DNA of 64,000 nt from Gammaproteobacteria bacterium. Lineage in GTDB: Bacteria; Pseudomonadota; Gammaproteobacteria; HK1. A model generated the notes under the pieces. That model was not told where the DNA came from and searched no databases. It saw nothing but the letters and a program-made list of their open reading frames with translations. Positions 6,148-56,803 of this stretch are shown here, piece by piece (positions within the stretch are counted from its first letter, which is position 1; the number at the start of each line of letters is the position of its first letter). Made by a program: the position numbers and the translations under genes. Where the stretch lies: the NCBI GenBank assembly GCA_965223775.1, contig OZ245021.1:5069517-5133516 (forward strand), read 5' to 3'.

Positions 6148-6395
6148 CGCGGTCCTCGCGAGACGGAACCCCGCCGCAGGGACGCCGGCGACCGGCCCCG
6201 ACCGGACGGGGAAAGGGCGGCGTTTCGCCGGGTCATCGATCGTCGCCGCGGCGGTACGTGCGAACGCGAGGGCCCGCCCGCCATGTTCCAGCCGGCGGCA
6301 CGGGCCTTGTCCTCTCGATCCATCGCCCGGCTTCCCGGCATTTCCGCTGCCGCCTCGATGGAAGGGAAGCGGGGCCGGGCGCCTCTCCGGGCGAC

Positions 6396-7265: not shown

Positions 7266-7394
7266 GTTCGGTTCCTCCTGCTCCTTCGTTACCGCCGGCG
7301 GGCAGGGCGGATTGCCGCCAGACGCGGTTGACCGGCCCGCGCTCGTGGCGGCGATCGAGACCGCCGGGAGCTTCGGACGCCGGGAAACATTCTA

Positions 7395-7633
7395 GCCCGG
7401 AAAAAATCACCGATTTTCTGCTGCGGACGCCAATCTGTCGCTTCGCGCTCCCAAGGTCGCCGCGGTAGCGGGCCGTACTCCCTCAAGCCGCTTCGACAGC
7501 GCGAACGCGCTAGTGTCGGCTACGCCTTCGCCAGCGCGTAAACGCTCTTGCGGTCCGTGCGGCCCGCTACCACGGCATTCTGCTTCGCGGCTTCGCGGCG
7601 CCCTCGCGACGAAAATCGGTGATTTTTCCGGGC
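7395..7633. repeat. Palindromic MITE/REP-like element, copy 1
   Basis: Terminal inverted repeats GCCCGGAAAAAATCACCGATTTTC ... GAAAATCGGTGATTTTTCCGGGC, with an imperfect palindrome throughout. Four related copies occur elsewhere in the window. Confidence 0.85.
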
Positions 7634-7678
7634 TGGCCCGCCCGCCGCCGGAAGCACCCCGCGAGGCGCGCGGCTGGC

Positions 7679-17232: not shown

Positions 17233-18024
17233 TCATCTACTCAACCTCCGCAACTCGGATTCGGTCTCCGGCCGGCCGGGGGTCGCGGAGTACGCCTCGG
17301 CCTCTTCCCGGACACGCGCGCTCAATCGCTGCCGCCGGAGGACGATGCGCGAGACCGCCTCCATCCGCTCCGAGAGGGTGCGGCCGAACCGCACCTTCTC
17401 CACCGCTTCGCACACGTCATCCGGCGTGAGCCCCTCGAGCACCCGCGACGCATCGAGCGTGCGCGGCGGGCTCCCGTCACCGAGGGCAATGAAGTCCACC
17501 CGCAGCTCGTCGGTGCCCTTGCGGCCGTGCAGCCGCCACAGCTCCCGCACCCCCAGGTCGCCATAGCGCTCGATCTTGCCCTCGTCGAAGCTCGTGACCT
17601 CGGTCTCGACCACCAGATCGGGCGCGGTGAGCTCGACGAACGCCACCACCGCCGCGTCTCCTTCGTGACGGGCGGCGTAGTAGCCGCGCGCGCGCTCGCC
17701 GACGTAGAACGCGCAGTCGGGCTCCATCCCCGTGCCGGACGGCTCGCCCGGCCCCCGCAGTCGGGCGGACCGAAGCCCCTTCACCGCATCGGTGACGGCG
17801 CTTCCCGCCGCATCCACGATGCGGTCGACGAGTTCAGTCAGGTCTTCGTGCAGGTGCGAGGGCGCCATCAGGGTGATGATCCCCCGCACCGGGTCGAGGC
17901 AGACCCGACGGAAATGCCGGTTCCAGTCAATTGCCGCAAGCGCGACTACGGTATCGGGATCGGCCCGCAGGACGTGGAGGGTGGAGCCGAGGGGTCCGGT
18001 GTGCATCGTGGCGGGATGGTCCAT
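17233..18024 (-). CDS. Uma2-family (DUF820, PD-(D/E)xK) putative endonuclease, copy A
   Basis: APDLVVETEVTSFDEGKIERYGDLGVRELWRLHGR matches the Uma2 core. An ATG at 18024 is preceded by GGAGG. A near-identical paralogue is at 19534..20316. Confidence 0.7.
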   Translation of the reverse strand: MDHPATMHTGPLGSTLHVLRADPDTVVALAAIDWNRHFRRVCLDPVRGIITLMAPSHLHEDLTELVDRIVDAAGSAVTDAVKGLRSARLRGPGEPSGTGMEPDCAFYVGERARGYYAARHEGDAAVVAFVELTAPDLVVETEVTSFDEGKIERYGDLGVRELWRLHGRKGTDELRVDFIALGDGSPPRTLDASRVLEGLTPDDVCEAVEKVRFGRTLSERMEAVSRIVLRRQRLSARVREEAEAYSATPGRPETESELRRLSR

Positions 18025-18879: not shown

Positions 18880-19310
18880 TTCACGAACGGCGTGTCCGCC
18901 TTGCCCGCTCCGGGTCGCTCGCCCTTCACGCGGCGACGACCGAGGCCCACCGCCGCGGGAACGCAAGACGAAGGATCGGGGTGCGGCGGCTCATCCGGCC
19001 GGCCACCGCTCCGGGTCCGGGCGCGGGCGGGGTCCCGACGGATTGCGGCGCGGCAACGACCGGGAACGGAAACGGCGAACCGGTCTGAACGAGAACGTGC
19101 CGGCCGAGAATTCAGGCGCGGGGACTCGAACATGGGCCGTGGCGAGCTCCGCAACGCGAGCCCGGCGCGAACGAAGGCCCGGGGATGAGGCCGAGCCGCG
19201 CCCCATACGGCGCAAGGCCGGCGGAGACGGATGGAGGCTCGGCCGCGAGAGGTCAGCGGAGATACGTGGCGAGGGCAAGGGTCCCTCCGCGGGCTCGGCG
19301 CCTCCCCCTA

Positions 19311-19500
19311 GCCCGCAAATCTCACCAGCTTCCTGCTGCGGACGCCGATCCATGCGCTGTGACAGGCCGTACTCCCTCAAGCCGCTTCGACGTAGTGTCG
19401 GCTACGCCTTCGCCAGCGCGTAAGCGCTCCTTCGGTCCGTGCGGCCTGTCACAGCGCCGTCTCGCCGCCCTCGCGACGAAAGCTGGTGAGATTTCCGGGC
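19311..19500. repeat. Palindromic MITE/REP-like element, copy 2 (shorter variant)
   Basis: TAGCCCGCAAATCTCACCAGC ... GCTGGTGAGATTTCCGGGC termini. The internal sequence is shared with copies 1 and 5. Confidence 0.8.
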
Positions 19501-19533
19501 TAGAGTCGGGCGGCCGGCCGCCCGTCCCCGGCT

Positions 19534-20316
19534 TCACCCGCCGGACGTCGAAGCGGTCTCCGCCCCGCCCGGGGTCGCGGAGTACGACTCGGCCTCCTCG
19601 CGGACGCGCGCGATCAGTCGCTGGCGCTGCAGCACGATCGCCGCCACCGCCGCCGTCCGCTCCGAGCGGGTCTGGCCGAACCGCACCTTCTCCACCGCTT
19701 CGCACACGTCTTCGGGCGTCAACCCTGCGAGCACCCGCGACCTGTCGAGCTTGCGCGGGGGGCTCCCGTCACCGAGGCCGAGGAAGTCCACCCGCAGCTC
19801 GTCGGTGCCCATGCGGCCGTGCAGCCGCCACAGCTCCCGCACCCCCAGGTCGCCATAGCGCTCGATCTTGCCCTCGTCGAAGCTCGTGACCTCGGTCTCG
19901 ACCACCAGATCGGGCGCGGTGCGCTCGACGAATGTCACCACCGCCGCGTCTCCTTCGTGACGGGCGGCGTAGTAGCCCCGCGCGCGCGCGCCGACGTAGA
20001 ACGCGCAGTCGGGCTCCATCCCCGTGCCGGACGGCTCGCCCGGCCCCCGCAGTCGGGTGGACCGAAGCCCCTTCACCGCATCGGCGACGGCGCTTCCCGC
20101 CGCGTCCACGATACTGTCGACGAGCTCAGTCAGGTCTTCGTGCAGGTGCGAGGGCGCCATCAGAGTGATGATCCCCCGCACCGGGTCGAGCCAGACCCGG
20201 CGGAAATGCCGGTTCCAGTCAATCGCCGCAAGCGCGACTACGGTATCGGGATCGGCCCGCAGGACGTGGAGGGTGGAGCCGAGGGGCCCCGTGTGCATCG
20301 TGGCGGGATGGTTCAT
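19534..20316 (-). CDS. Uma2-family putative endonuclease, copy B
   Basis: About 90% amino-acid identity to copy A over roughly 230 aa, with the same RBS and about 100 bp of shared upstream DNA. The 3' ends diverge. Confidence 0.7.
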   Translation of the reverse strand: MNHPATMHTGPLGSTLHVLRADPDTVVALAAIDWNRHFRRVWLDPVRGIITLMAPSHLHEDLTELVDSIVDAAGSAVADAVKGLRSTRLRGPGEPSGTGMEPDCAFYVGARARGYYAARHEGDAAVVTFVERTAPDLVVETEVTSFDEGKIERYGDLGVRELWRLHGRMGTDELRVDFLGLGDGSPPRKLDRSRVLAGLTPEDVCEAVEKVRFGQTRSERTAAVAAIVLQRQRLIARVREEAESYSATPGGAETASTSGG

Positions 20317-22399: not shown

Positions 22400-28470
<6,071 letters not shown>

Positions 28471-30592: not shown

Positions 30593-33409
30593 CTACTGGT
30601 CGCCCATGGCGTGGGCCGTCGCCTGGACGAGCGACCACACCGTCTCGAACGGCACGTCGTCGAAGTAGCCCTGCTGGTTGAGGCTCGAGAGCACTCCCAC
30701 CGCGGTCCGCGCCGCGGCATCGTCGCCCGCTTCCTCGGCCAGCTTCTCGAGCGCCTCCTTGAGCGGCAGGGAGCGGTCCTCGCCGAGCGCGGCCGCAACC
30801 AGCGCCTCGAGCCGCTCCACCCCCTGGCGGAACGCGAGCGGCTCGTTCGGGCGCCCGAAGAGCCCCCGGATGCCGTTTTGCGCGAGGCGGTCGCGCAACC
30901 CGTCCGGCATCGACTGCGTGACGCCCTCGAGGATCTCCCCGAGCCCGAAGCCCGAGGTGAAGAGCCCCCGGATGGTGTCCATGGTGCCGTCGGCGCCGCC
31001 CCCGTACATCCGGATCTGGGCTTGGGCGAGCGCCCCGCCCATCGCCCGCGCCTGGTCGATGTGGACATCGCGCTCCGCCTCGATGTGCATCTTGGCGAGC
31101 TCGAGGAACGTGGCCGCGTCGTTGTACTTCCGGAGCGCGCCCGCCTTCGTCTCGAGGCCCCGCGCCTCCGCCTCGAACATCCGCTCGGTATTGAGCACCC
31201 GCAGGTTCTCGATCTCCATCTCCGCCCGGCCCCGCGCGCCGGCCTCGCGCTCGATGCCGACCGCCTGGATCTGCTGCGCCTCGCTCGCCGCCCGCGCCCG
31301 CGCGAGGGTCGCGCCGGCCTCCTCCCCCGCCGCCTCGCGCCTCGCCTCGGACTGGGTGATCATGTGCAGGCGAGTGATCCGGGCCTTCGCCTCCTCGCCG
31401 ATCTCGTGCGACCGGGCACCGGCCTCGGCTTCGATCCGATCGATCTCCTTCTGCCGCTCGGCCGCCGCGACGAGGGGCACCGAATCGGCCTGCGACTGGG
31501 CGCGGCGGCGCTCCGCCGTCGCCTTCAGCCGCTCGGACTCGGCCATCTCGAGCGCCTGCGTCTTCGCCGCGACCGCGATCTCACGGTCCCGTTCCTCCTG
31601 TTCGCGCGCGAGGAAGCGCCGGATATCGGCCCGCTCCCGGTCGCCTTCCTTCTCGATCACCGCGATCTCGCGATTGCGCTCCTCGATCTCCACCGCCCGC
31701 ACACGCTGGACACGCGCCCGGTCGAGCTCCTCCTCCTTCGCGACGAGGGCGATCTCACGGTCCCGCTCTTCCTGATCGCGCAGGCGCCGGCGCTGGACGT
31801 CGGCCCGGTCGAGCTCCTCGCCCTTGGCCGCGAGCGCGATCTCACGGTCCCGCTCCTCGCGCTCGCGGGCGAGGGTGCGCCGGATCTCGGCCGCCTCGCG
31901 CCGCTCGGTGTCCTCGAGGATGGCGATCGATTTCGCGATCTGGGCCTGCTCCACCGCCTGCGCGGTGCGGATCTCCTCGCGCTCGACTTCGAGCCGCTGA
32001 TCGAGGATGAACCGCTGCTTGGCGGAGAGGATCCGGGTCTGCTCGTCGGAGACCTCCTGGTCCTGCCGGGCGGCGGCGAACGCTTCCTGCTTGTCGAGGT
32101 CGAGCATCGCGAGCCGGGTCTCGAGGGACCGGGCGCGCATCGCGAGGCTCGCCTCCTCCTGCGACTTGTGCCGGAGGGAGCGTGCCGCCTCCTCCGCCTC
32201 CGTCACCGCGGTAATCCGCTCGATGTCGGCGCGCTGGCGCTGGCGCTCCTTGGTGGCGAGCTCGATGTCCCGGTCCTTCTCGGCGCTCTCCCGGGAAAGC
32301 CCTCGCGCGATGTCCGCGATCTCCTCCTCCCGCGCCTTCTCGATGAGCTCGATCTGGCGGTCCTTCTGGGCCTTCTCCAGGGAAAGGCTGCGCCGGACGT
32401 CGGCAAGCTCCTGCTCGCTCGCCTTCTCGATGAGGGCGATGTCGCGGTCGCGCCGGTTGCGCTCGATGGCGAGGTCCTTCTCGATGTCGGCCGACTCGCG
32501 GCGGCGGCCTTCCTCGATGACCGCGATGTCGCGCTCGGTCCGCATCCGCTCGAGGTCCTTCTCGTTGTCGATCTCCTTCGTCTCGACCGCCATGCGCTGG
32601 TCGAGCACGTAGACCTGCTTCTGGCCCACCTGGAGGGCCTGCTCGTTCGCGATCTCCCGGTCCTGCTGGGCGCGGGCGAACGCCTCCTGGCGCTCGATCT
32701 CGAAGAGCTCGAGCTGCGCGTCGAGGTCCCGCTGGCGGATCGCGACCGTGGTCCGCTTCTCGGTGTTGTGCACGGTCCGGCGCGCGTTCGAGGTGATCTC
32801 GGTGATGATCTTGAGCCCCTCGGCGTCGAACACGTTGTCGGTCTTGAAGAACTCGCGCCCCGACTGCTCGAGGGCGACGATCGTGACTTCCTCCAGGACG
32901 AGGCCGTTCGCGCTGAAGCTCTCGGTCACGTCGGCCCGGATCTCGCGCGCGAACGAGTCGCGGTTCTCGTGCAGCTCGTCCAGGGTCTTGGTCGCGGCGT
33001 AGCTCCGGAGCGCGCTCACCACCTTCGCCTCGAGGAGGTTGCGGACCCGGTCCGCGTCGAAGGTCCGCTCGCCGAGGCTTCGGGCGGCGGTGAGGAGGTC
33101 CTCGGTCGTGTGTCCCACGTGGGCGTAGAGCTCCGCGACCACGTCCACCCGGATCTTGTCCGAGGTGAGGACCGCCTGCTCGCGCGCCCGGCTCACCACC
33201 AGCTTGATCGTTTCGAGCGAGACCCAGGTGACCTCGTGAAACACCGGGAGCACGACGGCGCCCTTGCCCAGGGACACCTTGGTGCCGAGGAATCCGGTGC
33301 GGATGAACCCCACGTTGGCCGGCGCCCGCTTGTAGACCCAGATCGAGATCACGTAGAGGATCGCGATGATGACGATCGCCAGCACGATGAGGGTGATGAT
33401 GGTTTCCAT
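30593..33409 (-). CDS. Flotillin-like SPFH/band-7 protein (YqiK/FloA family) with an expanded coiled-coil
   Basis: N-terminal TM helix plus an SPFH domain, then roughly 500 aa of coiled-coil built from repeated units (ERDREIAL.AK.EELDRA.VQR). Confidence 0.8.
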   Translation of the reverse strand: METIITLIVLAIVIIAILYVISIWVYKRAPANVGFIRTGFLGTKVSLGKGAVVLPVFHEVTWVSLETIKLVVSRAREQAVLTSDKIRVDVVAELYAHVGHTTEDLLTAARSLGERTFDADRVRNLLEAKVVSALRSYAATKTLDELHENRDSFAREIRADVTESFSANGLVLEEVTIVALEQSGREFFKTDNVFDAEGLKIITEITSNARRTVHNTEKRTTVAIRQRDLDAQLELFEIERQEAFARAQQDREIANEQALQVGQKQVYVLDQRMAVETKEIDNEKDLERMRTERDIAVIEEGRRRESADIEKDLAIERNRRDRDIALIEKASEQELADVRRSLSLEKAQKDRQIELIEKAREEEIADIARGLSRESAEKDRDIELATKERQRQRADIERITAVTEAEEAARSLRHKSQEEASLAMRARSLETRLAMLDLDKQEAFAAARQDQEVSDEQTRILSAKQRFILDQRLEVEREEIRTAQAVEQAQIAKSIAILEDTERREAAEIRRTLAREREERDREIALAAKGEELDRADVQRRRLRDQEERDREIALVAKEEELDRARVQRVRAVEIEERNREIAVIEKEGDRERADIRRFLAREQEERDREIAVAAKTQALEMAESERLKATAERRRAQSQADSVPLVAAAERQKEIDRIEAEAGARSHEIGEEAKARITRLHMITQSEARREAAGEEAGATLARARAASEAQQIQAVGIEREAGARGRAEMEIENLRVLNTERMFEAEARGLETKAGALRKYNDAATFLELAKMHIEAERDVHIDQARAMGGALAQAQIRMYGGGADGTMDTIRGLFTSGFGLGEILEGVTQSMPDGLRDRLAQNGIRGLFGRPNEPLAFRQGVERLEALVAAALGEDRSLPLKEALEKLAEEAGDDAAARTAVGVLSSLNQQGYFDDVPFETVWSLVQATAHAMGDQ

Positions 33410-36207: not shown

Positions 36208-38274
36208 TCAAACCGGCCGGCCCCCGCCGCCCGCTGGGCGGATCAGGATGTTGAGGTGGGGGTCCACCTCCCCCTCGTGACCGGGGTGGACCACGGTTGT
36301 CGAGTCGCGCTGGGTGATCACCGCCGGGCCGGGAATCCGGTTCCCCGGCCGCAGCCGGTCCCGGTCGTAGATGTTCGTCGTCATGAACTGCCCGTCGAAG
36401 AACACGGGGTGCCGGCCGGTCACCGCGCCCGCCGCGTCCGGCCCCTCGACATCGAAGCGCGGGAACTCCACCTTGACCACCCGCCCGACCGCCACCGCCC
36501 GCGCGTTCACCAGCTCCACCGGCTGGTCGAGGCGAAAGCCGTACTGGCGCTCGTGGAGATCGCCGAAACGCTCCACGGCCTCCGCGAGCCGCCCCGCGCG
36601 GAGCGCCTCGGGGTCCACCGCGATAGCGAACTCGTAACCCTGGCGGAAGTAGCGCACGTCGAGCTCGAAGGCGACCGACTGCCGGTCGGCCGGCACGCCC
36701 TCGTTGGATAGCCACACCCTCGCCTCCTCCCCGAGCCCCGCGAGCGAGTCCGCGATCTCCTCGGACCGGACCTCGTCCAGGGTGCGGATCAGGGTATGGG
36801 CGAACTCGTTCTTGATGTCCGAACAGAGGAACCCGAGGGCGGAGAGCACCCCCGGGGTGGGCGGGACGATCACGGGATGGCACCCCGCGAGGATCGCCAT
36901 CGCGTTTCCGTGCAGCGGGCCCGCTCCGCCGAACGCGACGAGGGCGAAGTCGCGCGGATCGAGGCCCTTCTGGACAGTGATGAGCCGAAGCGCCCCGAAC
37001 ATGTTCTCGTTGACGATGTCGAGGATCCCCTGCGCAGCCTGGTGGAGATCGAGCCCGAGGGCCCGGGCCGTCTTCCCGACCGCCTCCTCGGCCGCGGCCA
37101 CGTCGAGCTGCATCTCGCCCCCGAGGAGCGCCGGCGGGAGCCGGCCGAGCACCACGTTGGCGTCGGTGACCGTCGGCCGGTCGCCGCCACGGCCGTAGCA
37201 GGCGGGGCCGGGCCGCGCCCCCGCGCTCTCCGGCCCTACCCGGAGCGCCCCGGTCATCGGCACGTGGGCGACGGAGCCTCCGCCGGCGCCCACGCTGTGC
37301 ACCTCCACCGACGGCACCTTGATCGGATAGTACCCGAGCGAGGTCTGGCGCGAGATGTCGGGCTTCCCGTCCTGGATGAGGGACACGTCGGTGGAGGTGC
37401 CCCCCATGTCGAAGCCGAGGGCGTCCGGATGGCCGGCGAGCGAGGCGAGAAACGCCGCCCCCGACACCCCGCCGGCCGGTCCCGACAGCATCGTGTGCAC
37501 CGGCGATTCGGCCGCGTGGGCGACGCTCATCAGACCCCCGTCGGAACGCACGATGTGGACGTGGGGATCGAAGGCGACTTCCCGGAGCTTCGCCTCGAAG
37601 TGGCCGAGGTAGCGGCGCATGCTCGGCCCCACGTAGGCGTTCATGACCGCGACGAGGGTCCGCTCGTACTCGCGGAACTCGGCGAGGATGTCGGAGGCGA
37701 TGGTGACCGGGAGATCGGCGGCCCGCTCGTGCACGAGCTCCGCGAGCCGCCGCTCATGGGCGGGGTTCGCGTAGGCGTGGAGGAGAGAGATGGTGATCGA
37801 CTCCACCCCCGCGCCGACAAGCTCGTCAATCGCGGCGCGGGCGCGGGCCTCGTCGAGCGCGGTCACCACCTCGCCCCGCGCGCTCATCCGCTCCGGCACC
37901 CCCCGGGTGTGCTCGAGGTCGGCGAGCGGATCGGGCTTTTGCATGATCATCCAGCCCGCGAGCGGCCCCGGGGTCTGGGAGCGGGCGAGATGCAGGATCT
38001 GCTCGAAGTCCGCGGTGACGAGGAGGCCGACCTTCGCGCCCTTCTCCTCGAGCACGATGTTGGTGGATACGGTCGTGCCGTGGAGCAGGCTCGACACGTT
38101 CCCGGCCGATTCGCCGGTCCGTTCCAGGATGCCGCGCACCCCGGTCAGGATGCCGATCGACTGGTCCTCGGGAGTGGACGGGGTCTTGAACAGCGAGAGC
38201 CGCCCGGACTCGTCGTCGCAGAGCAGCAGATCGGTGAACGTACCCCCGACGTCGATTCCGAGACGGCTCGCCAT
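36208..38274 (-). CDS. hyuA: Hydantoinase A/oxoprolinase family protein
   Basis: 688 aa. It starts MASRLGIDVGGTFTDLLL and carries two ASKHA-fold ATPase motifs (DMGGTSTD). Confidence 0.88.
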   Translation of the reverse strand: MASRLGIDVGGTFTDLLLCDDESGRLSLFKTPSTPEDQSIGILTGVRGILERTGESAGNVSSLLHGTTVSTNIVLEEKGAKVGLLVTADFEQILHLARSQTPGPLAGWMIMQKPDPLADLEHTRGVPERMSARGEVVTALDEARARAAIDELVGAGVESITISLLHAYANPAHERRLAELVHERAADLPVTIASDILAEFREYERTLVAVMNAYVGPSMRRYLGHFEAKLREVAFDPHVHIVRSDGGLMSVAHAAESPVHTMLSGPAGGVSGAAFLASLAGHPDALGFDMGGTSTDVSLIQDGKPDISRQTSLGYYPIKVPSVEVHSVGAGGGSVAHVPMTGALRVGPESAGARPGPACYGRGGDRPTVTDANVVLGRLPPALLGGEMQLDVAAAEEAVGKTARALGLDLHQAAQGILDIVNENMFGALRLITVQKGLDPRDFALVAFGGAGPLHGNAMAILAGCHPVIVPPTPGVLSALGFLCSDIKNEFAHTLIRTLDEVRSEEIADSLAGLGEEARVWLSNEGVPADRQSVAFELDVRYFRQGYEFAIAVDPEALRAGRLAEAVERFGDLHERQYGFRLDQPVELVNARAVAVGRVVKVEFPRFDVEGPDAAGAVTGRHPVFFDGQFMTTNIYDRDRLRPGNRIPGPAVITQRDSTTVVHPGHEGEVDPHLNILIRPAGGGGRPV

Positions 38275-38290
38275 GCGATGGGCGCGGCGC

Positions 38291-38520
38291 TAGCGCGGAA
38301 ATCTCACCGACTTTCGTCGCGAGGGCGCCGAGCCGTCGCGTTGACGGGCCGCACGGACAGAAGAAACGCGAGCGCTTCTTTTCGAAAGAGCGCTTGCGCG
38401 CTGGCCGAAGTCGTGGTCGACGCCAGCGCATTCGCGCTGTCGAAGCGGCTTGCGGGAGTACGGTCCGTCAGCGCGAGTGGATCGGTGTGCGCAGCAGAAA
38501 GTTGGTGAGATTTCCACGCT
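38291..38520. repeat. Palindromic MITE/REP-like element, copy 3 (inverted orientation)
   Basis: Its termini are GGAAATCTCACCGAC at the left end and GTTGGTGAGATTTCCACGCTAGC at the right end. The terminal CTAG provides the stop codon of the 38519..39088 gene. Confidence 0.8.
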
Positions 38521-39088
38521 AGCCCCTCACGCCGCCGCCGGCGTCCGGAGAGGGCGGGCGGGAGCGGTCGGAACCGGCCCGGGGCGGAGGACGGCGAGGT
38601 CGCCAGCCGGTGCGGAACGCCCGCACGAGGTGGTGGAGCAGGTAGAACAGGATGGCGAGGATGACCATCACCACGATGCTGACGATCCGCGCGCCGAACC
38701 CGATGTCCGACCCCGCGCCGGCGGCGGCCGGCGCCATGAGCAGCTCGCTCAGCATCTCGATGGCCTGGATGATCGCCCCGGCGAAGAAGATGACGGCGAC
38801 GAGGATCGCGATCTGGAGGGTGTCGTACACGAGCGCGGTCGCGTCGAGCTCCCCGCCGTCGCGGAATACCTGGCGGCGGAAGGACTGCCAGTGGGCGATG
38901 GCGTAGGCGACCACCCCGACGAGCGATGCGAACCAGAACAGCACGTTGCTGAAATGGATGCCGGGAATGCGCTCCAGGAGATAGATCTCGAAGGGCTTGT
39001 AGAAGTAGAGGAAGACGAGCGCGACGACGACCGCGACCAGCGCGATCCACGGCCGGGGACGCCGCCAGCGGGACACTTCGTCGTTCAC
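38519..39088 (-). CDS. Hypothetical integral membrane protein (about four TM segments)
   Basis: 189 aa with four hydrophobic helices. It ends 16 bp upstream of the COG0523 gene on the same strand and has high GC3. Confidence 0.55.
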   Translation of the reverse strand: MNDEVSRWRRPRPWIALVAVVVALVFLYFYKPFEIYLLERIPGIHFSNVLFWFASLVGVVAYAIAHWQSFRRQVFRDGGELDATALVYDTLQIAILVAVIFFAGAIIQAIEMLSELLMAPAAAGAGSDIGFGARIVSIVVMVILAILFYLLHHLVRAFRTGWRPRRPPPRAGSDRSRPPSPDAGGGVRG

Positions 39089-45024: not shown

Positions 45025-45855
45025 TCACCGGCGCCTTTCGTCGAGCCGCGCTCTGAGCGCCGCGAGCTCGACCTCGGCGGCCTCGGCCCGCGACTCCGCA
45101 GCGTCGGCCCGTGACTTCGCAGCACCGGCCCTCGACTCCGCGGCTCCGGCCCTCGACTGCGCAGCGTCAGCCTTCCTCTGCGCAGCGTCGGCCTTCGACT
45201 CCGCAGCGTCGGCTCGTGACTCGGCGGCTTCAGCCCGCGACTCGGCGGCCTCGCGCGCGGCGAGTTGGTCGATACGGCTGAGAAGGCGCTCTCCCGTCGC
45301 CGGGTCGAAGAAGTGCATCTCCTCACCCTTCACCCGGAAGTCGAGATCGAGCGTCTTGCTGCGAAGGAGCAGCATCCCGTCGAGAGACTCCACCACCGGC
45401 TGCGGCACGTACGCGCCCTCCACCAGGCGACGGCCCTTGAGACGCAGCCCGAGGTATTCCCCCGTCGGGTCGTACTGCCAGTACTCCTGCACCCCGAGCC
45501 GCTCGTAGAGCTTCGCCTTCCGCCCGTCGTCCTCGCGCCACGTGCTGACCGACGCGACTTCCATCACGAAGGCGGGCACCACGCCCTCCTCCCACACCTT
45601 GTAGCTCGGGCGTTTGTGGCTGGGAACGCCGAACGCGACGAACACGTCCGGCGCCACCCGGGCGCGTGGATTGCCCTCCTCGTAGTAGATGAAGAGATCC
45701 CCGGACACGTAGACGTCCGGGCGGTCCCGGTAGTGGTGCTGGAGCGCGCTGACCGAATTGATGATCGCGAGGAGCTGCCAGTCATTCTCCGCCATCGGCT
45801 GGCCGTCCCCGCTCGGATACTCAACCGTGGCGGCAGGTCGAACGATTCGACTCAT
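45025..45855 (-). CDS. Uma2-family putative endonuclease (third, divergent paralogue) with a C-terminal (AAESRAD/E)n repeat tail
   Basis: PDVFVAFGVPSHKRPSYKVWEEGVVPAFVMEVASVST...YERLGVQEYWQYDP is a Uma2 core. The RBS GGAGGG precedes the start. Seven-residue repeats are encoded by 21-bp tandem DNA repeats at about 45060-45250. Confidence 0.7.
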   Translation of the reverse strand: MSRIVRPAATVEYPSGDGQPMAENDWQLLAIINSVSALQHHYRDRPDVYVSGDLFIYYEEGNPRARVAPDVFVAFGVPSHKRPSYKVWEEGVVPAFVMEVASVSTWREDDGRKAKLYERLGVQEYWQYDPTGEYLGLRLKGRRLVEGAYVPQPVVESLDGMLLLRSKTLDLDFRVKGEEMHFFDPATGERLLSRIDQLAAREAAESRAEAAESRADAAESKADAAQRKADAAQSRAGAAESRAGAAKSRADAAESRAEAAEVELAALRARLDERRR

Positions 45856-53788: not shown

Positions 53789-54850
53789 ATGAATGACACC
53801 GATACCACGGCCTCCACGACCCGCCCACCGCCCGGCTCCGGCTCCGGCCCGTACCGGCTCGTCGGCAGCAACGGTTCGCCGTATTCGATCAAGCTCCGCG
53901 CGATCCTTCGCTACCGCCGCCTGCCCTTCGTCTGGGAGCTCCGCACGGAACGCAACCGGGCCGAGTTCGCGGACCTGCGTCCGCCCGTCATCCCGATCCT
54001 CCAGTACCCGGAGGACGGGAGCTTCCACGTCGATACCACCCCGATCGCCGAGACTCTCGAAGCACGCCACCCGGATCGGCGGTCGATCCTTCCGGACGAC
54101 CCCGCGCACGCCTTCTTCTCCTACCTCATCGAAGACATGGCGGACGAATGGCTCACCAAGCCGATGTTCCACTACCGGTGGGCGTACGACGCCGACATCC
54201 GCTACGCGGGCCTCTGGATCGCCGACGACTTCTATCCCGACCGCACCGGAGAGGCGCGCGAGTCCACCGCACGTGATTTTGCGAAACGCCAGATCGAGCG
54301 CATGCCGCTCGTCGGCTGCACGCCCGAGAACGCGCCGGTGATCGAAGAAAGCTACCGCCGTGTCCTGGCCGCCCTCGAGCCGCACGTCGGCGCGTACCGA
54401 TTCCTCTTCGGGACCCGGCCGGCCCTTGCCGACTTCGGCCTCTTCGGCCAACTGAAGACGCTCGCCACCGACCCGACGCCGCTCGCGATCATGCGCGCGG
54501 ATGCGCAGCGCACCGAGAGCTGGGTTCGCCAGCTCGACGACGCCTCCGGCATCGAGGGCGAATGGTTGGGGGCGGACGATCCGCTTCCGCGAGCGGTCTC
54601 CGAACTGCTGCGGCTCTGCGGGGAGGTGTATCTCCCGTTCCTCGCGGCCAACGCGGCGGCGGCGGCGAAGGGAGAGGACGAATTCGAGGTGGAGCTCCTG
54701 GGCCGGCCGTTCCGGCAGGCCGCGTTCCGCTACCAGGTCAAGTGCCTCGCCGAGCTCCGGCGGCGGCTCGAAGGGCTGGACGAAGACGTGCGCGCGCAAG
54801 TCAGGCGTACGCTCGAAGACGTCGGCGCCTGGGAGGCCCTCGCCGGCTGA
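53789..54850 (+). CDS. Glutathione S-transferase family protein
   Basis: Thioredoxin-like N-terminal domain (YSIKLRAILRYRRLPF...PILQYPEDG) and a C-terminal alpha-helical GST domain. Confidence 0.7.
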   Translation: MNDTDTTASTTRPPPGSGSGPYRLVGSNGSPYSIKLRAILRYRRLPFVWELRTERNRAEFADLRPPVIPILQYPEDGSFHVDTTPIAETLEARHPDRRSILPDDPAHAFFSYLIEDMADEWLTKPMFHYRWAYDADIRYAGLWIADDFYPDRTGEARESTARDFAKRQIERMPLVGCTPENAPVIEESYRRVLAALEPHVGAYRFLFGTRPALADFGLFGQLKTLATDPTPLAIMRADAQRTESWVRQLDDASGIEGEWLGADDPLPRAVSELLRLCGEVYLPFLAANAAAAAKGEDEFEVELLGRPFRQAAFRYQVKCLAELRRRLEGLDEDVRAQVRRTLEDVGAWEALAG

Positions 54851-54922
54851 ATCAGTCTCCCGGCACTTGCCGCGGCCGCGGTAGCGCCGACGGCCCGCCA
54901 ACACCGGCGCCAGCCCGCAACG

Positions 54923-55095
54923 ATCACCGATTTTCTGCCGCGGACGCCAATCTTTCGCTTCGCGCTCCCAGGAGGGCCACGGTCCAGGAAAGGCGGCGAT
55001 CCCCGGAATCCCGCGCTCCCAACCTGAGTCTTGTGCGTAATCAGGTTCTGCCTTGCAGCTTCGCGGCGCCCTCGCGACGAAAATCGGTGAGATAT
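54923..55095. repeat. Palindromic MITE/REP-like element, copy 4 (variant core)
   Basis: GATCACCGATTTTCTGCCGCGGACGCCAATCTTTCGCTTCGCGCTCCCA ... CTTCGCGGCGCCCTCGCGACGAAAATCGGTGAGAT. The arms are shared with the other copies but the centre differs. Confidence 0.75.
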
Positions 55096-55216
55096 GCGGT
55101 CAGTGTTCAACGCCTGATCACAGTCCGGAGATGCCCTTCCGAGAGGAGACGAGAAAAAGGTATACTTAGTCAATTACGAAGAAATTTTTTCGCTTGTCCG
55201 AACCCGACAGTTCCCT

Positions 55217-55516
55217 GTGCCCAAATTCGCGAATTCCCTGCCGCCGCTCGACTGCCTGCGATTCTTCGAGGCCGCCGCCCGACACCAGAGCTTCGCCCAT
55301 GCGAGCAAGGAGCTCGGCGTCACCGCCGCCGCCGTCGCCCACCGTATCCGCATGCTCGAGGGCCATCTTCGGACCGAACTCTTCGATCGCCGGCAGCGCA
55401 GCGTGCGCCTCAACCGCCGGGGGCGGTCCTACTTCGAGGAGGTGCAGCGCATCCTCCTCGACATTCGCGATACCACCGAGCTCCACGGCGATCGCAGGCG
55501 CTTGCGCGGCCGCTAG
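55217..55516 (+). pseudogene. LysR-family regulator fragment (HTH domain only), truncated at a repeat element
   Basis: The 99 aa align with the first 95 aa of the downstream full-length LysR (LPPLDCLRFFEAAARHQSF...ELGVTAAAVAHRIRMLE...RSVRLNRRGR). The stop codon TAG is the first 3 nt of repeat copy 5. No effector-binding domain follows. Confidence 0.6.
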
Positions 55517-55766
55517 CCCCGGAAAAATCACCGATTTCCTGGCTAGCGGACGCCAATCTGTCGCTTCGCGCTCCCAAGGTCGCCGCGGTAGCGGGCCGTA
55601 CTTCCTCAAGCCGCTTCGACAGCGCGAACGCGCCGGTGGCGGCTACGCCTTCAGCCAGCGCGCAAGCGCTCTTTCGGTCCGCGAAGCTGCGTAAGCAGAT
55701 GCGGCCCGCTACCACGGCATTCTGCTTCGCAGCTTCGCGGTGCCCTCGCGACGAAAATCGGTGATT
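55514..55766. repeat. Palindromic MITE/REP-like element, copy 5
   Basis: About 90% identical to copy 1 over about 250 bp, with the same terminal inverted repeats. Confidence 0.85.
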
Positions 55767-55888
55767 CTTCCGGGCTGGAAGCGGAACGCAGCGGGGCGGA
55801 ACGCGTCGCAGGATCTTGCTCTCGGCGCGCAGATGTGCTGCGATGAGATACTCACGTTTTCCCAACGGGCTCCGTCCGGACCTTCGCC

Positions 55889-56803
55889 GTGCCACTCCTG
55901 CCCCCGCTCGAAAGCCTGCGCTTCTTCGAAGCCGCCGCCCGACACCAGAGCTATGTCCTTGCCGGCAAGGAGCTCGGCGTCACCGCCGCCGCCGTGGGCC
56001 ACCGCATTCGCACCCTGGAAAAGCATCTCGGGGCCGAGCTCTTCGAACGCCAGCGGCACAGCGTGCGCCTCAACCGTCGCGGCCGCGTCTATCTGAAGGA
56101 AGTGCAGCGCATCCTCGCCGAGGTGCACGGCGCCTCCGAGCGCCAACGCTACACGCCCCGGCGGGTGCGCATCGTCTCGGTCGAGGCGGTGGCCGAGAAG
56201 TGGCTGCTGCCCAAGCTCACCTCGTTCAGGGCGGCCTATCCCGGAATCGCCATCGAGCTCGAGACCGACCACCGCGGCGTCGACCCGGCGCGGGGCGACT
56301 TCGACGCCTGGCTCGCCTATACCGGCGAGACCGCCGCGCCGCGCCCGGTGCCGCGGCGCGAGGACACGCTGCTCGAGGAGACGCTCTACGAGGAGGAGCT
56401 ACTGCCGGTGTGCAGCCCGGCGCTGCTCTCCGCGCGCGGCCGCCCCCGCGGCCCCGCCGACCTGCACGACTGGCCGCTGCTCTACGACCTCGGCTGGGAC
56501 GCCGACTGGTCGTACTGGTTCGGCTGCCAGAGCCAGCCCACCCCGGACCTCTCGCGGGCTTCGGGGTTCCGCCTTTACAGCATGCTGGTCCAGGCCGCGG
56601 CCAACGGGCTTGGTGCCGCCATCGGACGCCCGATGCTAATCGCCCACGAACTCGAACGGCGCGTCCTCGTGCCGCTCTTCGACCGCCAGGCCGGGGCGCC
56701 GGAGCGCTGCTGCCTGATCACTACCGCCGCCTCCCGGCAGCGGCCCGAGCTGCGGGCGTTTCGGGAATGGATCCTGCGCCAGGCGAGGGCGGCGGCCGTG
56801 TGA
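55889..56803 (+). CDS. LysR-family transcriptional regulator (GcvA-like)
   Basis: 304 aa from a GTG start. Contains an N-terminal HTH (LESLRFFEAAARHQSYVLAGKELGVTAAAVGHRIRTLE) and a C-terminal substrate-binding domain. Confidence 0.85.
   Translation: MPLLPPLESLRFFEAAARHQSYVLAGKELGVTAAAVGHRIRTLEKHLGAELFERQRHSVRLNRRGRVYLKEVQRILAEVHGASERQRYTPRRVRIVSVEAVAEKWLLPKLTSFRAAYPGIAIELETDHRGVDPARGDFDAWLAYTGETAAPRPVPRREDTLLEETLYEEELLPVCSPALLSARGRPRGPADLHDWPLLYDLGWDADWSYWFGCQSQPTPDLSRASGFRLYSMLVQAAANGLGAAIGRPMLIAHELERRVLVPLFDRQAGAPERCCLITTAASRQRPELRAFREWILRQARAAAV

Follow-up and report, generated by a model that had tools for sequence, protein, structure and literature searches.

Repeats behind genes in a gammaproteobacterial contig are very probably IS1380-type MITEs that insert at rare CTAG-type sites

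Five similar repeats with no coding content lie in the 64,000-nucleotide stretch of gammaproteobacterial DNA analyzed here (the window), each close to the end of a gene, which raises the question of what they are and why they occupy these positions. The initial annotation had described them as a family of fully palindromic, MITE- or REP-like elements placed at gene 3' ends. The existence of five related repeats was confirmed, far above chance, in two ways: the invariant 22-nt motif CCCTCGCGACGAAANNNGGTGA matches the window at exactly five places, compared with 0.06 expected from shuffled sequences, and a covariance model trained solely on copies from other genomes recovers these five sites (46 to 148 bits, Table 1), with all remaining matches scoring 14 bits or less. 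The places named originally were correct, but the limits of copies 4 and 5 had been drawn 10–13 nt short. Each copy runs from CCCGCAWATCTCACC to GGTGAGATWTGCGGG, with a 4-bp target duplication outside these ends that is mostly CTAG. The inverted repeat first quoted for the family is present literally in copies 1 and 5 only, copies 2 and 3 carrying a variant with compensating changes.

Table 1. Limits and parts of the five repeat copies, and of the scar of a sixth, in window coordinates
Feature	Limits	Length (nt)	Strand	Model score (bits)	Left side	Right side	Remarks
Copy 1	7392-7636	245 (with flanks)	-	73	CTAG 7392-7395; IS1380-type end CCCGGAAAAAATCACC 7396-7411	family motif CCCTCGCGACGAAA 7601-7614; end GGTGATTTTTCCGGG 7618-7632; CTGG 7633-7636	
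Copy 2	19308-19503	196	-	148	CTAG 19308-19311; CCCGCAAATCTCACC 19312-19326	CCCTCGCGACGAAA 19468-19481; GGTGAGATTTCCGGG 19485-19499; CTAG 19500-19503	most canonical
Copy 3	38290-38522	233	+	118	CTAG 38290-38293; CGCGGAAATCTCACC 38294-38308; TTTCGTCGCGAGGG 38312-38325	GGTGAGATTTCCACG 38504-38518; CTAG 38519-38522	opposite orientation
Copy 4	54910-55104	195	-	52 (with 114-nt insert)	CCAG 54910-54913; CCCGCAACGATCACC 54914-54928	CCCTCGCGACGAAA 55069-55082; GGTGAGATATGCGGT 55086-55100	degenerate
Copy 5	55513-55778	266	-	46.5	CTAG 55513-55516; CCCCGGAAAAATCACC 55517-55532	CCCTCGCGACGAAA 55743-55756; GGTGATTCTTCCGGG 55760-55774; CTGG 55775-55778	
Sixth-copy scar	6150-6175		.				window retains one 15-nt repeat unit GGGGTTCCGTCTCGC

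All five copies are at or near the 3' end of a gene, and the gene assignments made at the outset stand. Copy 1 lies 43 nt past the stop codon of a GST gene (stop 7679, minus strand) and has TauD (start 7265, minus strand) as its other neighbor; the strand on which it folds better (see below) is the minus strand, sense to both genes. Copy 2 is likewise sense to both neighbors, 31 nt past the Uma2 stop (19534) and upstream of CysZ (start 18966). Copy 3 is antisense to both of its neighbors: its right-hand CTAG provides, as a minus-strand TAG, the stop codon of a 189-aa membrane ORF (38519-39088), and hydantoinase A starts at 38274 on the other side. Copy 4 is found 60 nt past the second GST gene (53789-54850, plus strand), to which it is antisense; it retains the two ends, which belong to different subtypes, and the sub-terminal motifs, around a 114-nt interior unrelated to the family. 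The CTAG of copy 5 contains the TAG stop of an HTH-only lysR fragment (55217-55516), and this copy is antisense to the plus-strand genes on its flanks.

The nature of the repeats is indicated by their outermost 15 nt, which a large IS1380 clade has as its terminal inverted repeats. Metagenome contigs were searched for an autonomous partner with the terminal 19-mer GGTGAGATATGCGGGCTAG, from which the sub-terminal G peculiar to the MITE was excluded. The 19-mer caps elements of 1649–1754 bp with one ORF of 460–490 aa each, as well as many unrelated small elements. The ORFs of the long elements match Pfam PF13701 (E = 1e-149 to 1e-157) and NCBIfam NF033539 'IS1380 family transposase' (382–399 bits, cut-off 180), and at least 12 IS1380-type transposase genes, 52–65% identical to the query, are present in the metagenome loci fetched by the 19-mer. 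In metagenomes this transposase clade has very many members, one of which is labeled 'IS1380 family transposase' by one source. The autonomous elements end in CCCG[C/G]A[T/A]ATCTCAC, with CTAG on both flanks in most of them. The window ends CCCGCAAATCTCACC and CCCGGAAAAAATCACC match CCCGCATATCTCACC of the NF033539-encoding elements and also CCCGCATTTCTCACAG of an annotated IS1380-family copy on the Pseudomonas putida plasmid pKF715A, which is arranged as CTAG-CCCGCATTTCTCACAG...CTGTGAGAAATGCGGG-CTAG. The MITE resembles the sampled insertion sequences over approximately 15 nt and no further, so the interior is the family's own. No IS1380-type transposase gene was found in the window or in L001-L110, neither among the 106 listed genome loci nor in the loci of relatives, and no autonomous copy was detected among the 106 listed loci from end pairs 0.5–4 kb apart, recurrent neighbor proteins or DNA repeated between loci. 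The elements thus combine ends matching those of IS1380 elements, a 4-bp duplication, small size, the lack of a transposase gene, unrelated flanks and presence or absence at a given site. We conclude that they are very probably IS1380-type MITEs, a commonplace form of selfish DNA, and that they insert at rare CTAG-type 4-mers that are often TAG stop codons. The transposase would make a 4-nt staggered cut in the target and join the ends to it, as in other IS1380-family elements.

The behavior of the flanking 4-mers and the comparison with relatives both bear on mobility. Among copies with readable ends, 21 palindromic and nine non-palindromic direct repeats were counted versus three inverted repeats, the non-palindromic pairs including TTAG/TTAG, CTAA/CTAA, CTAC/CTAC, TCAG/TCAG and CTGA/CTGA. 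This excess of direct repeats is what a duplicated target would give and does not suit a lengthened inverted repeat. CTAG is the usual target, with TTAG, CTAA or TTAA used less frequently and CCAG now and then. Three relatives (L108, L109 and L110), with hydantoinase A 89–94% identical, lack copy 3, and in them the membrane ORF and hyuA are separated by only 15–47 nt. The empty site in L108 reads GGCGTGAGGGG-TTAG-CCCCGCC, compared with GGCGTGAGGGG-CTAG-(copy 3)-CTAG-CGCC in the window. L108 has a 196-nt copy of its own (121 bits) between hyuA and hyuB with CCAG on both sides, at a position occupied by one CCAG alone in the window and in L109. In one of these two empty sites the insertion duplicated the stop codon of the upstream gene. 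The early suggestion of non-autonomous mobile DNA is therefore upheld: the ends and the 4-bp duplication match the IS1380 family, the empty sites demonstrate mobility, and the target-site duplications and empty sites proposed as checks were both found. The figure of hundreds genome-wide is an extrapolation from the five copies, and the approximately 66 kb available from the three relatives contain only one copy. Copies 1 and 5, and some others elsewhere, have CTAG at one end and CTGG/CCAG at the other; unlike 4-mers of this kind require that one of the duplicates mutated afterwards. Every insertion would generate two new CTAG sites, which would explain head-to-tail pairs with one common 4-mer, and abutting elements indeed have a single 4-mer in common.

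An independent metagenome contig (L107) that is 99.3–99.8% identical to the window around copy 1 provides a view of strain-level change. Its GST-TauD site retains the same flanking CCAG and CTAG, and the interior between them is flipped, so that the model matches the opposite strand; this version of copy 1 is 208 nt long versus 245 nt in the window. Because the two unlike flanking 4-mers are preserved, the flip points to in-place inversion or conversion via the 26-bp arms and not to excision followed by re-insertion. The same contig contains a half-element (L107 4131-4270, model positions 24-161, 26 bits) between direct repeats of GGGGTTCCGTCTCGC at the site where the window has the scar of a sixth copy (Table 1).

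Beyond the window, a scan with the 22-mer in a sample of one genome per species gave at least 106 loci, nearly all in sediment and soil MAGs and with few chance matches. The carriers include Acidobacteriota (Thermoanaerobaculia, Holophagae and Sulfomarinibacteraceae), several Gammaproteobacteria (three of them single-contig chromosomes), one alphaproteobacterium, Gemmatimonadota, Planctomycetota, Nitrospirales (Nitrospirota), Eisenbacteria and 'Deltaproteobacteria', at least six phyla overall. In addition to the five copies in the window, the fetched loci yield 101 regions, with unrelated flanks. Just over half of the two-ended copies (39/75) are 182–186 nt long, with a mode of 184 nt; sizes overall range from 184 to 266 nt and the window copies are longer variants. 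The right end is invariably ...CCCTCGCGACGAAAnnnGGTGAGAtaTGCGGG, followed by CTAG, CTAA, TTAG or similar, beyond which the copies diverge. This is a MITE family without a previous name. A full-text literature search for the conserved motifs returned unrelated primers only. A plasmid collection queried with a whole copy and both end consensus sequences gave only chance matches, and viral contigs gave no match to the element. Exact-protein look-up of three other flanking genes returned no record, probably because of differing start-codon calls.

The position of the repeats behind genes is probably explained by the choice and scarcity of their target. CTAG occurs 10 times in the 64-kb window, compared with 185 expected from base composition, and the elements contain or border eight of the 10; of the remaining two, the one at 22400 falls at the terminus of a minus-strand ORF. 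TTAG, CTAA and TTAA together occur seven times in the window, and the genome has a G+C content of 69%. At foreign loci, where genes were called with a crude GC3-based caller, the stop codon of a neighbor lies inside the flanking 4-mer in 33 of 101 copies and a gene 3' end is 100 nt or less away in 56 of 101. In tandem contexts the upstream stop is inside the 4-mer in 13 of 33, with median distances of 9 nt from the stop and 71 nt to the next start. CTAG-type 4-mers appear to be extremely rare in this genome, and TAG and TAA stop codons would supply much of the remainder. Given this rarity and this supply, insertions would fall on or just after stop codons, and because the duplication restores the stop the gene would survive and the insertion be tolerated. 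We infer that the 3'-end pattern arises from target choice together with the survival of harmless insertions, which would explain why the repeats seem tied to gene 3' ends while playing no part in expression.

The interior of the elements is dominated by a long hairpin. Folding compared with shuffled sequences gives z = −7.6 for copy 1 and z = −9.4 and −11.5 for the two strands of copy 2 (−129.2 kcal/mol at z = −11.5). The proposal that each whole element folds into one long hairpin thus holds far beyond shuffles for copies 1 and 2 and fails for copy 4 (z = −2.3), in which the long hairpin is absent. Nor are the elements fully palindromic, as first described: the two conserved sub-terminal motifs are not complementary to each other, and the elements therefore have polarity. 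The architecture of the family consists of a 26-bp outer stem, two small conserved internal loops (5' GUC-GC-GA opposite 3' GCA-GC-AG), a long covarying stem, the sequence of which varies by lineage with pairing preserved, and an apical GTAC...GTAC hairpin (GGCGUACU...AGUACGUC). MAFFT and RNAalifold by themselves recover only the outer stem, the full structure having come from the covariance-model alignment. In the model alignment of 50 copies, pairing holds for 88.3% of cells, compared with 73% in column shuffles and 34–43% with slid partners, and double changes are present in 55 of 74 pairs, a number reached by none of 500 shuffles.

The structure is also kept on one strand in particular. 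In 64 of 66 copies, the strand reading 5'-CTAG CCCGCATATCTCACCnnnTTTCGTCGCGAGGG... has a fold more stable than that of the complement, by approximately 19 kcal/mol, an energy difference that is independent of the alignment. The model's pairs on that strand include 418 G.U and U.G versus 113 A.C and C.A, and derived changes from a Watson–Crick consensus within genome groups comprise 115 to G.U versus 45 to A.C, both sets of counts being non-independent events from an alignment fitted to the structure. Sister families, which have the same ends and unrelated interiors, give z = −8 to −18 and strand differences of 20–30 kcal/mol. The hairpin is an inherited, actively maintained property of the family, kept on one strand, and the two non-complementary internal-loop motifs are conserved across phyla. 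The strand bias is not predicted by a plain double-strand cut-and-paste model and may indicate that one particular single strand, whether RNA or DNA, is of importance to the element. Such a strand could act as a folded intermediate or cofactor that is used or tolerated by IS1380/piggyBac-type transposases, and we hold it possible, though rather unlikely, that one single strand (RNA or ssDNA) takes part in the element's own spread or control. If so, a single-strand role would extend to many unrelated, strongly structured small elements with the same ends. A replication-linked orientation was considered and set aside, the better-folding strand comparing with the local GC skew at 52 versus 38, a weak difference judged non-significant without statistics.

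Conserved pairing of this kind would also be expected of structured non-coding RNA genes, or of cis-acting hairpins that the host keeps as terminators or 3'-end stabilizers, and the strong covariation, the predominance of G.U over A.C on one strand, the very stable hairpins and the location of copies behind genes are all consistent with such a function. We nevertheless consider it very improbable. Tandem contexts have the better-folding strand in the sense direction 17 times and in the antisense direction 16 times, and of the window copies two are sense and three antisense; because orientation is random relative to genes, the hairpin appears to serve the element and not the neighboring gene. 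A consensus scan of copies 1 and 2 detected no U-tract and no intrinsic-terminator or sigma-70 match, which together with the balanced orientation argues against the terminating or transcript-stabilizing role that the initial annotation had put forward. Moreover, copies come and go between close relatives, one has flipped in place with its neighbors unchanged, copy 4 has lost its hairpin, and the placement is accounted for by target choice. Rfam gave no match in the window at gathering score, only a spurious 8-bit match in a permissive E-value scan of copy 1 (E < 10) and no matches in 20 loci with sister MITE families; the repeats match no tRNA or rRNA family in Rfam, so that the derivation from such genes allowed for at the outset is not supported.

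Other mobile or repetitive systems account for parts of the evidence. REP, BIME or REPIN palindromes, which a domesticated HUH (RAYT) transposase would mobilize through single-stranded hairpins, would likewise be intergenic, hairpin-forming and multi-copy, and the one-strand bias would suit a single-stranded DNA substrate. To our knowledge, however, REP and REPIN elements make no target duplication, whereas these repeats show a 4-bp duplication and empty sites; their ends exactly match the inverted repeats of the IS1380 family, the unit measures 184 nt, a GTAG-type REP unit of 20–40 nt is absent and no neighbor protein recurs among the 106 listed loci. We regard this origin as extremely improbable, and the "REP-like" label is best dropped. 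Derivation from another CTAG-preferring DDE family, either the IS5 group (4-bp YTAR duplication) or IS630/Tc1 (CTAG target, TA duplication), is recommended by the target: MITEPsy1 inserts at CTAG/YTAA with a 4-nt duplication (PMC3189936), and YTAR targets are described in the IS5 and IS711 literature. It is nonetheless highly improbable, as the CCCGCATATCTCACC ends are unlike the GGAAGG-type ends of MITEPsy1 and ISPsy2, all autonomous elements found with these ends encode an IS1380-family transposase, and the IS4 and IS1634 models score far under cut-off; a TA-only duplication is excluded by the nine non-palindromic 4-mer direct repeats and by the duplication of CCAG, which contains no TA. A segmental duplication or assembly artifact confined to this region, which the initial annotation had named as its refutation, could be suspected from copies 1 and 5, which are 96% identical in ungapped blocks, and from copies 4 and 5, which are separated by only 400 nt. 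We give it next to no credence: the flanks of the five copies are unrelated to one another, more than 100 foreign loci exist in unrelated genomes, single-contig chromosomes among them, and copy 1 recurs at its site in an independent metagenome contig.

With the repeats read as IS1380-type MITEs, annotators gain a name and a rule, namely a 15-nt end, a 4-bp CTAG-type duplication and a stop-codon position, for a repeat frequently met in uncultured sediment bacteria, whose assemblies it breaks. A 184-nt element present in Acidobacteriota, Proteobacteria, Gemmatimonadota, Planctomycetota and Nitrospirota of similar habitats would serve as a clean marker of cross-phylum DNA exchange, and the conservation of structure on one strand, seen also in the sister families, is the only feature from which something new could be learned on how IS1380- and piggyBac-like elements move or are controlled.

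Among known systems, the closest are the IS1380 insertion sequences themselves. IS1247, a member of that family, is 1672 bp long with 16-bp inverted repeats and a 5-bp duplication, and the CTAG target duplication common to IS1380 elements and the window elements conforms to the family rule of an element of roughly 1.7 kb with 16-bp repeats and a duplication of 4–5 bp (PMC3281130). The same terminal inverted repeat, CCCGCAWWTCTCAC, is present in the IS1380 family (IS1247; the pKF715A copy, NZ_AP015030.1 308.3–310.0 kb). The window elements differ in being 190–266 nt long and non-coding, with only approximately 15 terminal nt in common, and the conserved interior hairpin is their own, being absent from the sampled IS1380 insertion sequences. 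Ends of the 5'-CCC...GGG-3' type, as in the window family, are also those of piggyBac. Like the repeats studied here, piggyBac and its MITEs duplicate a 4-bp, palindromic, TA-centered target, in their case TTAA, which is also among the targets used here. The two transposase groups are related, IS1380 transposases serving as the prokaryotic outgroup in piggyBac phylogeny (PMC10813416). In comparison with eukaryotic piggyBac, the present family resides in bacterial hosts, prefers CTAG over TTAA and uses CCAG too.

In form, the family also resembles the ERIC, Correia/NEMIS, RUP and bcr1-type repeats, which are imperfect palindromes of 100–200 nt with short target duplications and many intergenic copies, are co-transcribed with their neighbors and are predicted to form RNA hairpins with compensating changes. 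Each of these is known from a single genus or family, and for most of them no transposase is known; the window family spans phyla and has an identifiable transposase family, and we know of no sequence relation between it and any of them. MITEPsy1 of Pseudomonas syringae (100 nt, from the IS5-family ISPsy2) is likewise small and non-coding with terminal inverted repeats (PMC3189936), but it has GGAAGGTCTGAAAAAGCC ends, another transposase family, a narrow host range and no 180-nt covarying hairpin. MITEPye1 of Paracoccus yeei, of the IS1182 family, is a small intergenic element with IS-type inverted repeats and direct repeats, no transposase and a long RNA stem-loop predicted by Mfold, present in 1–3 copies per chromosome in one species (PMC11578231). 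The features by which MITEPye1 was defined as a MITE are shared by the window elements, the parent insertion sequence family being IS1182 in the one case and IS1380 in the other (PMC11578231).

Copy 1, one of the window's five hairpin MITEs with IS1380-type ends, was compared with its counterpart in L107, an independent metagenome contig from a 99%-identical strain, and the element proved to be inverted in place between the two. The unlike 4-mers beside it (CCAG and CTAG) and its other flanks are the same in both contigs, whereas the interior is flipped in L107 and is 37 nt shorter than in the window. L107 additionally carries a half-element, matching positions 24-161 of the family's covariance model, with the 15-nt direct repeat GGGGTTCCGTCTCGC on both sides. 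Because the window keeps only a single GGGGTTCCGTCTCGC unit at this site, the sequences suggest that the half-element is absent through deletion between the direct repeats. Elsewhere in these otherwise near-identical contigs, ~4 kb of the window is reduced to ~60 nt in L107, which, judged from sequence, is a strain-specific indel.

Copy 4 points the same way as copy 5, and for this reason the region that they bound may represent a MITE-bounded module of foreign origin. The stretch directly after copy 4 is markedly A+T-rich; the adjoining lysR fragment is HTH-only and shares 79% identity with the beginning of the full-length lysR.

Features of the window, L107 and L002 in the order discussed
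Feature	Position	Strand
Copy 1	7392-7636	
Copy 1 counterpart, L107	2667-2874	
Half-element, L107	4131-4270	
Half-element site	~6150-6175	
Segment reduced in L107	1962-6024	
Copy 4 to copy 5, whole	54910-55778	
Copy 4	54910-55104	
A+T-rich stretch	55105-55216	
lysR fragment	55217-55516	
Copy 5	55513-55778	
Full lysR	55889-56803	
Uma2-family genes, common stretch	17262-17561; 19554-19853	
21-nt units	45056-45265	
ORF with 21-nt units	45025-45855	minus
87-nt repeats	31548-32464	
938-aa ORF	30593-33409	minus
CGTCGCGAGGG-ended element, L002	5031-5294	

CTAG, the usual flanking 4-mer, occurs 10 times in the whole window (185 expected), and TTAG, CTAA and TTAA have 2-3 occurrences apiece; GATC, with 483 sites versus 185 expected, is over-represented. 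Two Uma2-family genes, one of them directly upstream of copy 2, have a 300-nt stretch in common (87% identity). The seven tandem 21-nt units, which lie within one ORF, and the diverged 87-nt repeats, which lie within the 938-aa ORF, look like protein-level repeats; relatives' counterpart of the 938-aa ORF matches Pfam Band_7.

The 19-nt IS1380-type terminus also ends dozens of unrelated elements of 120-450 nt in metagenome loci (L111-L230). These small elements, none of which matched Rfam in the 20 loci scanned, are mostly highly structured, with one strand folding far better, and some are A+T-rich. In the foreign genome locus L002, a 263-nt element with CGTCGCGAGGG-type sequence at both ends is a head-to-head variant of the MITE family. 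Finally, in L008, L009, L010, L016 and L074, two elements abut with one common 4-mer (...GCGGG-CTAG-CCCGC...), an arrangement that fits a later insertion re-using the duplicated target of an earlier one.
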